Of a stretch of DNA of 64,000 nucleotides, positions 27,726-53,557 are shown in pieces. The translations under genes and the position numbers were made by a program. Positions within the stretch are counted from its first letter, which is position 1. Every line of letters starts with the position of its first letter. The notes beneath the pieces were generated by a model. That model was not told the origin of the DNA. It was given only the letters and a program-made list of their open reading frames with translations, and searched no databases. Origin of the DNA: a virus (lineage: Duplodnaviria > Heunggongvirae > Uroviricota > Caudoviricetes); the IMG/VR virus record IMGVR_UViG_3300015214_000024, positions 137,787 to 201,786 of that record; one strand, given 5' to 3'.

Positions 27726-27800
27726 TCCGATTTGGTCCAGGTGGATGGGCACAGGATTCTAAACCCTAGGAGACCGGTTCGATCCCGGTAATCGGAGCCA
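27726..27800 (+). tRNA. Amber suppressor-type tRNA (anticodon CTA)
   Basis: TCCGATT/AATCGGA-G-CCA acceptor, loop TTCTAAA, ACCGG-TTCGATC-CCGGT T arm; anticodon stem has 2 mismatches. Confidence 0.75.
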
Positions 27801-41058: not shown

Positions 41059-42243
41059 GTGATGTTATACGATCATCGTAAAATTGGCCGAGAAATGGGC
41101 CTATTTCATATTCAAGAAGACGCCGCAGGCTCAGTATTTTGGCACCCACGCGGCTATGCACTTTACCGTAATATTGAAAATTATATTCGAATGAAACAAC
41201 TTCAGTATGGCTATGACGAAGTCAAAAGTCCACAACTGTATGATGTTTCACTTTGGAAAAAGAGTGGTCATTGGGATCACTTCAAGGAAAATATGTATTC
41301 TATTGAGGATTCAAATTTCTCCTTGAAACCTATGAATTGTCCAGGCCACATTCAAATCTTCAATTCTGACCTAATTTCTTATAAACAACTACCTTTGCGG
41401 CTGGCTGAATTTGGTTGTTGCCATCGTAATGAGCCATCTGGTGCATTACACGGTATAATGCGTGTCCGACAGTTTGTCCAAGATGACGCTCATATTTTTT
41501 GTATGGAAAACCAGATTCAATCAGAAGCATTAGCATTTTGTAAAATGCTTCAGGAAGTTTATGATGATTTTGGATTTAAAAATATCAAAGTAGCCTTAAG
41601 TCTGAGACCGGATGACCGTGCTGGCAATGACGCTGATTGGGATTTGGCCGAACAGGCATTAGAGGAAGCCATCAAGCAGGCCGGGTTTGAATACATTCTC
41701 CAGCCAGGTGAAGGTGCATTTTACGGTCCTAAATTGGAATTTGCACTAATCGACCAAGGCGGCCGTGAATGGCAATGTGGTACCATACAATTAGACTTTG
41801 TTTTGGCTGGACGACTTGGGGCAAAATATGTTGCTCAAGATGGTAGCCAAAAAGTGCCAGTTATTTTACACCGTGCAGTATTGGGTTCATTAGAACGATT
41901 TATTGGTATTCTTTTAGAGCATTATGGTAAGGATTTACCAGTATGGCTATTAAAAGACCAATTTGCTGTTTTGCCAATCAAGCCATCAGTCAATGATTAC
42001 GCTTGCAATGTGAAAGAAGCTGTGCTACAATTTGGCTTTAATGCAGAATTGGATTCTGATGATATTTCTCTTGGTGACAAGATTAAAAAATATTATCATA
42101 TTCCCAATCTCATTATTATCGGAGACCGTGAGGCTAAAAACGGCCAAGTTGTTTGGCGAAAACTTGATGGTTCACAGGAAGTTATTGATTTACATATTTT
42201 TTATGAAAAAGTGAAAAATGTGAAAAATCCGTTGAAAAAGTAA
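41059..42243 (+). CDS. thrS: Threonyl-tRNA synthetase, minimal (lacks N-terminal TGS/editing domains)
   Basis: Starts at DHRKIG; KPMNCPGH, HRNE.SG.L.G..RVR.F.QDDAH, FYGPK, WQCGT.QLDF, HRA..GS.ERF. Confidence 0.95.
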   Translation: MMLYDHRKIGREMGLFHIQEDAAGSVFWHPRGYALYRNIENYIRMKQLQYGYDEVKSPQLYDVSLWKKSGHWDHFKENMYSIEDSNFSLKPMNCPGHIQIFNSDLISYKQLPLRLAEFGCCHRNEPSGALHGIMRVRQFVQDDAHIFCMENQIQSEALAFCKMLQEVYDDFGFKNIKVALSLRPDDRAGNDADWDLAEQALEEAIKQAGFEYILQPGEGAFYGPKLEFALIDQGGREWQCGTIQLDFVLAGRLGAKYVAQDGSQKVPVILHRAVLGSLERFIGILLEHYGKDLPVWLLKDQFAVLPIKPSVNDYACNVKEAVLQFGFNAELDSDDISLGDKIKKYYHIPNLIIIGDREAKNGQVVWRKLDGSQEVIDLHIFYEKVKNVKNPLKK

Positions 42244-42316: not shown

Positions 42317-42382
42317 ATGTCACATTCAGTTTATCATTATGAATATGAGCGTGAATATCTCCGTCCAGGGGAGAGTTGGTAA
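42317..42382 (+). CDS. Attenuator leader peptide MSHSVYHYEYEREYLRPGESW (His/Tyr/Glu-rich)
   Basis: AGGAAAG upstream; 10 of 21 residues are H/Y/E; followed by a terminator and His/Tyr/Glu tRNAs. Confidence 0.8.
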   Translation: MSHSVYHYEYEREYLRPGESW

Positions 42383-42415
42383 CGAGTATTTAAAATACTT
42401 CGACTGAACCGATTC

Positions 42416-42445
42416 AACCCTGGGACTGAAATCCCAGGGTTTTTT
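42416..42445 (+). terminator. Attenuator terminator of cluster 1
   Basis: AACCCTGGGA-ctgaaa-TCCCAGGGTT-TTTT; TCCAGGG (42364) in the leader can sequester the 5' arm. Confidence 0.88.
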
Positions 42446-42455
42446 CGTTTTTGTG

Positions 42456-42531
42456 GTGGCATAACGCAAACAGGTGAGCGGACTGACTGTGAATCAGTTG
42501 TTAGAGGGTTCAAGTCCCTTGTGTCACACCA
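42456..42531 (+). tRNA. tRNA-His(GTG), A73 type
   Basis: ACTGA-CTGTGAA-TCAGT; acceptor GTGGCAT/GTGTCAC-A-CCA. Confidence 0.9.
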
Positions 42532-42840: not shown

Positions 42841-42916
42841 GGTGACTGAAGTGTTGACGGATACACGCTTGGTTGTGAACCAGGAGTAACGGGCTCGATA
42901 CCCGTTGGTCACCCCA
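42841..42916 (+). tRNA. tRNA-His(GTG), G-1:C73 type
   Basis: CTTGG-TTGTGAA-CCAGG; G-GTGACTG/TGGTCAC-C-CCA. Confidence 0.88.
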
Positions 42917-45387: not shown

Positions 45388-45472
45388 GTCAAAACTACTA
45401 AAGACGAATGGTAGAGTCAGCCCGCTCTTATACGGGATAATAGCTGGTTCGATTCCAGTTAGTAGTTTTGGC
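45388..45472 (+). ncRNA. tRNA-like RNA with extended acceptor stem and 8-nt anticodon loop
   Basis: GTCAAAACTACTA/TAGTAGTTTTGGC; CCCG-CTCTTATA-CGGG; GCTGG-TTCGATT-CCAGT. Confidence 0.6.
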
Positions 45473-45619: not shown

Positions 45620-45717
45620 TATGAGCCAGGCGGCGGGAGTAGAACAGTGGTACTTCACCTCCATCCCAGGAGGAGATTGTAGGTTCGATTCCTACCTTGC
45701 CGCCCGTCCTGGCCATA
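45620..45717 (+). ncRNA. tRNA-like RNA with 6-nt anticodon loop and paired flanks
   Basis: CGGCGGG/CTTGCCG; CCTCC-ATCCCA-GGAGG; GTAGG-TTCGATT-CCTAC; flanks GCCAGG/CCTGGC. Confidence 0.6.
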
Positions 45718-48140: not shown

Positions 48141-48551
48141 ATGATAAAAATCGAAAAGCCGTGGGGAAATTATATCTCTTTATATGAGGGAGATTTACCT
48201 TATGATAAAATACAAATCAAAACATTGACAGTTTTGTCAGGCCAACGACTTTCACTACAATCGCATAAACATAGAAAAGAATATTGGTTAGTAGTTTCAG
48301 GAAATCCTACTATTGAGGTAGAGCAATCAGAAAGAGACTATTTTATTGGTGATTTAATTAAAATCCTTCCCAATCAAAGACATAGATTGTCTAATCAATA
48401 TACTGACCCAGTTGTAGTAGTCGAAGTTCAGACTGGTCCATATTTGGGCGAAGATGACATCATTCGCTATGAGGATGACTATAATCGTGATGATGTTGAG
48501 GAAATGCAAAATATAATAAGGCAAACAAAAGAGCAGTCTGGTGAAGAATAA
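48141..48551 (+). CDS. Cupin, mannose-6-phosphate isomerase type II C-terminal-like
   Basis: KPWG, LSLQSH.HR.E.W, HRLSN, EVQTG.YLGEDDIIRYEDDY. Confidence 0.88.
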   Translation: MIKIEKPWGNYISLYEGDLPYDKIQIKTLTVLSGQRLSLQSHKHRKEYWLVVSGNPTIEVEQSERDYFIGDLIKILPNQRHRLSNQYTDPVVVVEVQTGPYLGEDDIIRYEDDYNRDDVEEMQNIIRQTKEQSGEE

Positions 48552-48741
48552 AAAACTTAGTACAGTTTACTTGCCTAAAGAACTGGACGACTGCCTTAAA
48601 GAGATGGCGCTTATGTTTTCATCAAGTGGTGAAACAATATCAGTCAACCAATTAATTGGTGCAATTTTATGTTTCCAATTTGGTGATTTGGAAGCTATTG
48701 ACAATGATCTTTTAAGAACATATTATACGCTCCTTAGTTGA
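48541..48741 (+). CDS. Small ribbon-helix-helix-like hypothetical protein
   Basis: TVYLPKEL...LKEMA..SVNQLI. Confidence 0.5.
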   Translation: MKNKKLSTVYLPKELDDCLKEMALMFSSSGETISVNQLIGAILCFQFGDLEAIDNDLLRTYYTLLS

Positions 48742-48763
48742 GAGTTATTTGGAGGAAAATATA

Positions 48764-49385
48764 ATGCTACGTGGTACACGTTTGATTGAGGGCAAGGAAG
48801 CTCAAACATTTAATGAAGTAATTGATACCTTTCGGAGGTTAGTTCATCCAGTCTGATTTCGAAGAAATCATTGTTCCCAGTATTTGGGAACAAGAAACCT
48901 TTTTGGCCAAAACTGGCCCAGAACTATCTAAACAAATGTGGACCTTTAAGGATAAAGGTGATCGAGACGTTTGTTTGATTCCTGAAGTTACCGGTATTTT
49001 TCAAGAAACTTGGCGTGAAAAATGGTCCAAGTCAATGAAATTCCGTAAAGTGTTTTACGTACAACGCTGTTATAGGTATGAAAGGCCGCAAGCTGGCCGT
49101 TATCGTGAATTTACGCAATTGGGTATTGAAATCCTTGGTAACTATGATAATGGTGATCAAGAGGCTCAAGATTTGTTGAAAGCTGGTCTTGACGCAATTG
49201 GTGTAGAGTATGAATTTGATTCAACCGCGACACGTGGTCTCGGATACTACACTGAGCTTGGTTTTGAAGCTCGTTGCGAATCACTTGGTGCGCAAAAGCA
49301 AGTAGCAGGCGGCGGCCGTTATGCTGAAGGTGTTGGATGGGCTATTGGTGTTGACCGACTGGTTTTAGCTAAAATGAATAAATGA
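48764..49385 (+). CDS. hisS: Minimal histidyl-tRNA synthetase catalytic domain, needs a +1 frameshift near 48842-48856
   Basis: GGAGG SD + MLRGTR in frame 0 (TGA at 48854); +1 frame FEEIIVP, LIPEVT, YRYERPQAGRYREFTQLG.E, RGLGYYT, GGGRY, GWAIGVDRL. Confidence 0.85.
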
Positions 49386-53408: not shown

Positions 53409-53495
53409 ATGTTAAACCTAGTACTCAATCCAGTTAATTTGTTAGGACTCAATCCTAATCAATTGCCTGTGGGTGACTCGGGGACAGCATTTTAA
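53409..53495 (+). CDS. Attenuator leader peptide MLNLVLNPVNLLGLNPNQLPVGDSGTAF (Leu/Asn/Pro-rich)
   Basis: AGGAAAG upstream; 15 of codons 2-20 are L/N/P; followed by a terminator and Leu/Asn/Pro tRNAs. Confidence 0.82.
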   Translation: MLNLVLNPVNLLGLNPNQLPVGDSGTAF

Positions 53496-53524
53496 AATCT
53501 AAATAAAAGATTTAAATGAAGGTT

Positions 53525-53557
53525 ACCCCGGGAAACGCAAGTTTACCCGGGTTTTTT
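53525..53557 (+). terminator. Attenuator terminator of cluster 2
   Basis: CCCGGGAAAC-gcaa-GTTTACCCGGG-TTTTTT; GGGTGACTCGGGG (53471) in the leader can pair with GTTACCCCGGG. Confidence 0.85.

Follow-up and report, generated by a model that had tools for sequence, protein, structure and literature searches.

A conserved, probable +1 frameshift site with a proposed histidine sensor codon in a half-size histidyl-tRNA synthetase gene of phages and bacteria

A gene encoding a half-size histidyl-tRNA synthetase (mini-HisRS) was found in a 64,000-nucleotide stretch of phage DNA (hereafter the window), where its catalytic core can be read only by way of a +1 change of frame at a site resembling that of prfB but with a histidine codon in place of the stop codon; the same +1-broken gene is carried by dozens of other phages and bacteria. 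We observed an obligatory frame change, a motif and register that are conserved, intact active-site residues and fold, avoidance of histidine, and genes for tRNA-His. That the frame change is real, programmed, and strongly conserved is close to certain on comparative grounds. A first-pass annotation of the window had interpreted the site as a +1 shift that senses histidine, and our results support this interpretation, in which the shifting, its dependence on His-tRNA, and the charging of tRNA-His are inferred. The best explanation, which we consider likely in spite of the absence of expression, proteomic, or enzymatic data, is a histidine-gated +1 feedback cassette.

The split gene and its genome

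The virus record that holds the window comprises 455,147 bases with a GC content of 39%, is rated complete, and contains approximately 75 tRNA-like genes together with several translation genes; it is a jumbo phage, found in landfill and groundwater metagenomes. The mini-HisRS gene (hisS) lies on the plus strand and may have its own transcript, based on a sigma-70-like promoter match (TTGACA-17-TATTAT, 11/12, 48698–48726) that is a consensus match only. An initiation Shine-Dalgarno (SD) sequence, GGAGG (48751–48755), lies 8 nt 5′ of the ATG at 48764, which opens ORF1 (frame 0, 48764–48856), identified as the HisRS N-terminus and motif-1 helix through an intact homologue, P0026, that aligns with the N-terminus of T. 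thermophilus HisRS. ORF1 runs for 27 codons up to the shift, followed by a His codon, two further codons, and a TGA at 48854, leaving an unshifted product of 30 aa. The +1 frame has a TAG at 48840, is open from 48843 onward, and carries the HisRS motifs: ORF2 (48843–49385, plus strand; 180 aa, stop at 49383–49385) encodes the rest of the class II catalytic core, i.e., motif 2, HisA, HisB, and motif 3, and has a Pfam match to tRNA-synt_His (E = 4.5e-19). The frame change is confined to the interval after base 48842 and before the TGA at 48854.

Within the cassette, an internal SD-like stimulator, CGGAGG(T) (48833–48839, the hexamer occupying 48833–48838), ends with its hexamer 3 nt (TTA) 5′ of the P-site shift codon GTT (Val 27, 48842–48844), which is followed by the A-site sensor codon CAT (His, codon 28, 48845–48847) and a C. 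The base predicted to be skipped is the C of the sensor codon, with re-pairing on TTC and decoding in the +1 frame predicted to resume at ATC 48846. Both the coordinates and the prfB-like geometry given in the first-pass annotation were correct throughout. The frameshift motif has a single match in the whole 455-kb genome, and a scan of the genome for SD-3nt-NTT sites in broken frames returned four matches, of which only the mini-HisRS site was convincing. The other synthetases found in this genome have no broken frames, each being contained in a single open frame. Past the site, folding did not exceed that seen in intact homologues or in other parts of the gene (z −0.5 vs −0.3), giving no sign of a 3′ structural stimulator; a hairpin at 48871–48893 is peculiar to this window, and 3′ structure is not conserved across homologues. 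An alternative genetic code was rejected, as translation through the TGA at 48854 gives no HisRS sequence and table 11 already provides a long-ORF coverage of 87%. Upstream, between a cupin gene and hisS, a 66-aa ORF (48541–48741) looks ribbon-helix-helix-like by eye and has no Pfam match; it is missing at that place in a 92%-identical relative (L003).

Conservation of the broken frame among homologues

A protein search returned 1,862 relatives, the top matches of which mostly had junk or absent N-termini ending in Phe-Ile or Phe-Thr, with a minority being intact at 205–213 aa. Loci were drawn from viral, genome, and metagenome contigs and kept if the mini-HisRS N-terminus was recognisable, resulting in 133 loci (101 +1-broken and 32 in frame) that formed 94 clusters at 90% core identity, 67 of them +1-broken and 27 intact. 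The broken clusters span GC contents of 36–71% and core identities from 33% (median 56%). Exactly one frame-0 (C/G)TT-CA(T/C) precedes the ORF1 stop in every broken cluster; the P-site codon is CTT in 49 and GTT in 18, with no others, and the A-site codon is CAT in 53 and CAC in 14, such that the P-site amino acid varies (Leu or Val) and the His codon is invariant. The comparison that the first-pass annotation had proposed, SD-NNN-NTT-CAY in broken frames of homologues, was borne out in 67/67 clusters and in all seven held-out broken loci that were fetched later (CTT-CAT behind an SD-like hexamer), versus none of the 27 intact clusters at the homologous column. These counts overstate independence because the sequences share descent.

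Other later look-ups yielded one intact locus and one (L298) with an in-frame TGA and without the motif. In L298, an in-frame mini-HisRS, the TGA (~55–70) falls at the column where others carry the SD and could be a recoded stop, readthrough, or a pseudogene. Among full-length HisRS genes, no frameshift was found in 143 assessable loci. Cultured carriers of the broken gene include Pseudomonas, Chromobacterium, Paraburkholderia, Azospirillum, Thalassospira, and phage Phosso, in which the gene (L214, PV764938.1, 1474–2064) is annotated with a wrong start and lies 300 nt after a G-1:C73 tRNA-His.

The first-pass annotation had left room for a sequencing indel, which can now be excluded. While the evidence for the break, including the probable source contig that spans the site in the same register at a depth of 57, comes from contigs and not raw reads, contigs of two other studies cross the site in the same register with 7 and 11 substitutions and no gaps, the same break and motif recur in all 67 broken clusters, including those of cultured bacteria and the cultured phage Phosso, and both frames are conserved across 33–90% identity. 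Sequencing error or a pseudogene is thereby refuted by the comparative data, and we give it virtually no weight.

Codon usage locates the change of frame precisely. Wobble positions follow a frame-0 pattern before the site and a frame +1 pattern after it, with the switch exactly at the site, and the overlapping third positions inside the site are frozen (T in 66/66, C in 66/66). Elsewhere in the broken genes one third of Phe codons are TTT, which never occurs at the site (TTC test: log10 P −7.3 in 35 clusters below 70% identity and −2.1 in 11 clusters below 60%). The residue after this Phe in the +1 frame is Ile or Thr in all broken clusters, versus ten different residues at that column in intact homologues (Ile or Thr in 8/27). 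We attribute the restriction to CAY, which forces Ile or Thr codons; given that the C of CAY also serves re-pairing, the next two bases are the stronger argument for His.

An internal Shine-Dalgarno signal

Anti-SD pairing upstream of the site has a mean of −8.5 kcal/mol in broken homologues versus −1.6 in intact ones, and the best hexamer register in the broken set is exactly −9..−4, i.e., the 3-nt spacing that is established for +1 shifts (PMC5009743). The sites use CGG or AGG in 59/67 cases, as do 27% of Arg codons elsewhere, and the codon following the SD Arg encodes R, S, G, E, and others, a combination that identifies the hexamer as a signal at the RNA level. The hexamer lies 3 nt upstream in most but not all broken loci; it is weak in a few and almost lacking at L030 and L031. 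The SD at the gene's own start averages −4.0 kcal/mol in intact and −6.2 in broken genes, and some of the losses of the shift may reflect hosts that do not rely on SD pairing. Intact minis with little or no start SD were seen at L035, L037, L038, L039–L044, L048, L050, and L051.

The internal SD could instead initiate ORF2 at the ATC or ATT 7 nt downstream, with no frameshift and with ORF1 as a separate peptide. GGAGG stands at a favourable distance from ATC 48846 for initiation and ATH occupies the start position in 52/66 sites, but the remaining 14 have ACN, which is non-initiating, and ATG is never seen, although C-ATG would preserve the His codon. Internal initiation would also leave the invariant NTT unexplained, would detach the motif-1 helix, which ORF1 encodes and which is continuous in intact homologues, and in L034 would lose 70 residues; we regard it as very improbable.

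A further group of alternatives places the change of frame in slippage during transcription, or has the ribosome shift by −2, shift at the stop codon, or respond to tandem rare Arg codons or to a shortage of Leu-tRNA. Against these, no A/T run longer than 3 occurs near any site, and the −2 codon is variable, with 18 kinds. A stop does directly follow the His codon in 28/66 sites, and CGG-AGG, as expected of rare-Arg shifting, is present in 29/66; however, the stop lies 2–14 codons away (4 in this window), and the codon after the Arg and the P-site codon both vary in amino acid, with only His being constant. These explanations, even taken together, retain scarcely any plausibility beside ribosomal +1 slippage at the His codon.

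Movement and origin of the site

Counted from the conserved N-terminal Arg, the site occupies five positions: codon 24 in 58 clusters, codons 15–16 in 7, codon 20 in 1, and codon 68 in 1. The last of these is L034 (IMGVR_UViG_3300036766_000988, ~2630–2640), in which the site is placed inside a C-L-I-P-E motif with invariant Leu, Pro, and Glu; a frame-0 Leu, a skipped C, and a +1 Ile rebuild C-L-I-P-E exactly, which fixes the L034 junction as Leu then +1 Ile, without His or Phe. The nearest kin of L034 are intact (tree support 99/96), suggesting a fresh origin through a one-base insertion, although the locus is a single contig in which an error is not excluded. In the tree, which was built from 139 columns with L190 and L160 excluded, broken and intact forms are interleaved, with 9–10 changes, at least 3–5 of them forced. 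Given the short alignment, the unsettled bootstrap, and the lack of a root, gain and loss of the cassette cannot be distinguished.

The predicted product is a HisRS catalytic core

The first-pass annotation had expected the shift to yield a full-length HisRS. The shift would yield a HisRS, but only its catalytic core: the joined product has 27 + 179 = 206 residues, none of them histidine, and is half the size of a normal HisRS (~420 residues). It lacks the insertion domain and the C-terminal anticodon-binding domain, with approximately 80 residues missing between motif 2 and HisA and a stop 8 residues past motif 3. The intact homologue P0026, which is 66% identical to ORF2, has the same layout, aligning from its residue 2 with the N-terminus of Thermus thermophilus HisRS in two blocks that skip the insertion domain and end just past motif 3. 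Its structure model (pLDDT 93) has E. coli HisRS as the best match (TM 0.87–0.92), and the class II catalytic fold with motifs 1, 2, and 3 is present in both the model and the alignment; the ORF1 part corresponds to the motif-1 helix (model residues 10–29), which is continuous in intact homologues.

HisA (RGLxYY), HisB (GGGRY), and the active-site Glu, Thr, Arg, and Gln are found in the window product at 73, 104, 157, 166, 182, and 191. Catalytic residues are invariant in 61 aligned rows, including the equivalents of T. thermophilus Arg259, Tyr263, Tyr264, Glu270, and Arg311 and the motif-2 set, and the motif-2-loop arginines that read G-1 (T. thermophilus Arg115 and Arg122; PMC4357726) are kept at the same alignment positions. 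HisRS depends mainly on G-1 and can charge microhelices, the insertion domain helps clamp the acceptor stem, and the E. coli catalytic domain alone has ~0.6% of the aminoacylation efficiency (PMC4357726). Given the reliance on G-1 and the charging of microhelices, yet only 0.6% residual efficiency, activity of the product is plausible but not shown.

A half-size protein without two domains, which some databases label ATP phosphoribosyltransferase regulatory subunit and which on bacterial chromosomes stands alone with no tRNA-His nearby, might also be something other than a synthetase, either a HisZ-like regulator or a histidine ligase to another acceptor, in which case the His-gated shift would be real but without feedback. 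However, the residues that bind histidine and ATP and the arginines that bind G-1 are all kept, HisRS structures outrank HisZ in both sequence and fold searches (sequence E 1e-22 for HisRS vs 1e-4 for HisZ), and the hallmarks of HisZ, which are loss of the synthetase active-site residues and a length of about 320–400 aa, are absent from this protein of 206 aa. In five cultured bacteria, the broken gene coexists with two longer family members that fit HisZ and HisS, which makes the mini-HisRS an accessory copy; the strong linkage to tRNA-His in phages also speaks for a synthetase. We find a non-synthetase product unlikely, though it cannot be set aside.

Histidine in the surroundings of the gene

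Histidine makes up 0.05% of the shifted products; the figure is 0.63% in intact minis, 1.0% in full HisRS, and 1.76% in the long ORFs of this phage. Leader ORFs with His runs lie 128–225 nt upstream in 20 broken loci versus 1/27 intact; these are mostly bacterial, belong to few clades, and were recognised by ORF only, without terminator data. The commonest tRNA within a few kb of mini-HisRS is tRNA-His (45, versus 19 for the next), mostly with an encoded G-1. The His-free products, the His-run leaders, and the tRNA-His linkage each independently point toward histidine sensing.

These data bear on the possibility that the shift merely occurs at a set ratio, keeping expression low and constant, with His being no more than a slowish codon that starts with C. 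Set-ratio frameshifts are the common class (PMC5009743), and a C after NTT aids re-pairing regardless of the amino acid; nevertheless, only the two His codons of the 16 C-starting codons occur, in 74/74 cases and at five positions, CAT is used as well as CAC, neither of them a rare codon for this phage (9.2 and 8.4 per thousand), histidine is avoided in the products, and His-run leaders accompany many loci. A set-ratio shift therefore seems improbable to us, and a histidine-gated shift remains the preferred reading.

In this phage, two tRNA-His(GUG) genes lie 6 kb upstream of mini-HisRS on the plus strand, one at 42455–42531 (encoded G-1, discriminator A73, CCA; Rfam RF00005, 44.8 bits) and one at 42841–42916 (encoded G-1:C73, CCA; 38.1 bits), the latter being the likely substrate of mini-HisRS. 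ARAGORN missed both, and its result of no tRNA-His was discarded as wrong. Several other tRNA-like genes were likewise detected only by Rfam. A leader with a terminator (42317–42447, plus strand), consisting of a 21-codon His/Tyr/Glu-rich ORF (42317–42382) and a terminator stem (42416–42441) with an alternative antiterminator pairing, heads the His/Tyr/Glu tRNA block; it is supporting context that lies outside the frameshift cassette. With a promoter-like site of its own, hisS may rely on the frameshift as its sole sensor in this phage.

Four tRNA blocks in the genome are headed by leader ORFs that match their amino acids (His/Tyr/Glu; Leu/Asn/Pro; a mixed set; and a run of seven Ser), located at 42317–42447 and 53409–53557 of the window and, in coordinates of the genome (C1), at ~209726–209895 (+) and ~300250–300360 (−). 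Each leader ORF is followed by a hairpin and a T run directly before the first tRNA, the predicted arrangement of codon-matched attenuators on phage tRNA arrays, on which a literature search found nothing. Synthetases and a release factor are encoded at 41059–42243 of the window and at C1 196145–197092, 247492–247980, 295712–297418, 301212–301736, and 302455–302757; they include a ThrRS-like ORF of 394 aa, two class I enzymes (a short one of 425 aa in the Leu block and one of 869 aa), two class II enzymes (258 aa, and 418 aa beside the Ser block), and a protein of 185 aa with an RF-1 domain. Four tRNA features (27726–27800, 45393–45468, and 45631–45705 of the window and C1 15281–15358) comprise two with CUA anticodons, which might act as amber suppressors, and two in which the anticodon loop is irregular.

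Seven other loci (L001, L009, L010, L012, L015, L060, and L138) have tRNA-His without G-1, several ending in U72-A73, besides or instead of a G-1:C73 tRNA-His. These resemble the Caulobacter type of tRNA-His without G-1 (PMC3064791) and suggest phages that serve two tRNA-His identity systems.

Proposed mechanism and significance

We propose that the ribosome would translate 27 codons and arrive with Val- or Leu-peptidyl-tRNA on (G/C)UU, where anti-SD pairing 3 nt upstream would put the complex under strain with the A-site His codon still unread. With plentiful His-tRNA, His would be decoded and translation would stop within a few codons, giving a dead product of 30 aa; with scarce His-tRNA, the P-site tRNA would slip from NUU to UUC, its third-position G:U wobble becoming G:C, and the shifted ribosome would make the 206-aa histidine-free HisRS catalytic core. 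This core would most likely charge G-1 tRNA-His via the acceptor stem alone, and the restored His-tRNA would then shut off the shift. The enzyme would be an accessory made on demand, in phages beside their own tRNA-His and in bacteria beside a normal HisS. The natural trigger may be histidine starvation, or an attack on or inhibition of HisRS or tRNA-His, which sequence cannot distinguish.

Our confidence in this scheme decreases along its steps: ribosomal slippage at the site is inferred with near certainty, dependence of the shift on His-tRNA is very probable, and aminoacylation with feedback is probable. The phage encodes a tRNA-Val(GAC), a potential reader of GUU, for which slipping from GUU to UUC leaves a first-position mismatch; the window site may therefore be less efficient than the CUU form. 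Standing against the best explanation, 27 of the 94 clusters manage without a shift. More broadly, and with a confidence only somewhat better than even, we hypothesize a class of amino-acid sensors in which a cognate sense codon sits in a prfB-like cassette and the loop is closed on a 206-aa HisRS that charges via the acceptor stem alone, the cassette having arisen or moved several times by one-base insertion; in jumbo phages, it would belong to a broader system that detects when particular charged tRNAs run short, possibly after host attack on them, and supplies the missing tRNA and synthetase.

If the scheme is true, the cassette would amount to a minimal sensor, genetically encoded, for a single charged tRNA, and would gauge how much histidine tRNA is charged. 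At 15 nt, and available in cultured bacteria and a cultured phage, it offers a candidate for purposeful hungry-codon frameshifting that can be tested directly. Annotation also stands to be corrected, as most database entries of the mini-HisRS family are truncated or have wrong N-termini, and a natural half-size synthetase bears on ideas of early acceptor-stem recognition and on orthogonal pairs.

Comparison with known systems

We found no description of this site or family in the literature, most subscription journals having been outside the search. In the GeneTack survey, a +1 cluster of tRNA synthetases appears solely under phase variation, with no mention of histidine, the members of that cluster being unchecked. 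Curran and Yarus in 1989 and Sipley and Goldman in 1993 are said to have put sense codons into the RF2 site, and such constructs reportedly respond to starvation.

Attenuators with leaders of the hisL type, pheST attenuation, and the T-box raise the expression of a synthetase or pathway when the cognate aminoacyl-tRNA is short, and act on transcription or initiation through upstream RNA structure; the mini-HisRS sensor, by contrast, is one codon inside the coding sequence, without conserved 3′ structure. Class IIa HisRS (E. coli 1KMM and 1HTT, T. thermophilus 1ADJ and 4RDX) shares with mini-HisRS its fold (TM up to 0.92), motifs 1–3, HisA, HisB, and the G-1 arginines, but is a housekeeping enzyme of ~420 aa with two extra domains and an unbroken gene, whereas mini-HisRS is accessory and has 206 aa. 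Hungry-codon frameshifting (Gallant) and the CUU-AGG/AGU sites of yeast Ty1, ABP140, and EST3 likewise involve a +1 slip of P-site tRNA-Leu on CUU at a slow A-site aminoacyl-tRNA; those sites, however, are starvation artefacts or operate at a set ratio with a rare tRNA, while the codon in mini-HisRS is not a rare one and is the one that the encoded synthetase itself would serve. A 2016 review knew of no example of hungry-codon shifting that yields a starvation-specific protein (PMC5009743).

A regulatory role has been proven for few bacterial frameshifts, the textbook case being the autoregulatory one of prfB (release factor 2), which in E. coli has a +1 frameshift at CUU-UGA-C with an SD 3 nt upstream and the sensor at codon 26 (PMC5009743). 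Mini-HisRS resembles it in its short ORF1 (sensor codon 28), obligatory +1 shift, functional part in the +1 frame, internal SD at 3 nt, and NUU P-site codon (mostly CUU), and in a product predicted to remove its own signal. The genes are unrelated, re-pairing is on UUC in mini-HisRS and on UUU in prfB, and a quarter of mini-HisRS cases have GUU. The A-site codon in mini-HisRS is a sense codon for His (67/67) with aminoacyl-tRNA as the ligand, whereas in prfB it is a UGA sensing RF2; since the UGA stop that defines prfB is absent, the cassette is best described as working like prfB without being a member of that family.
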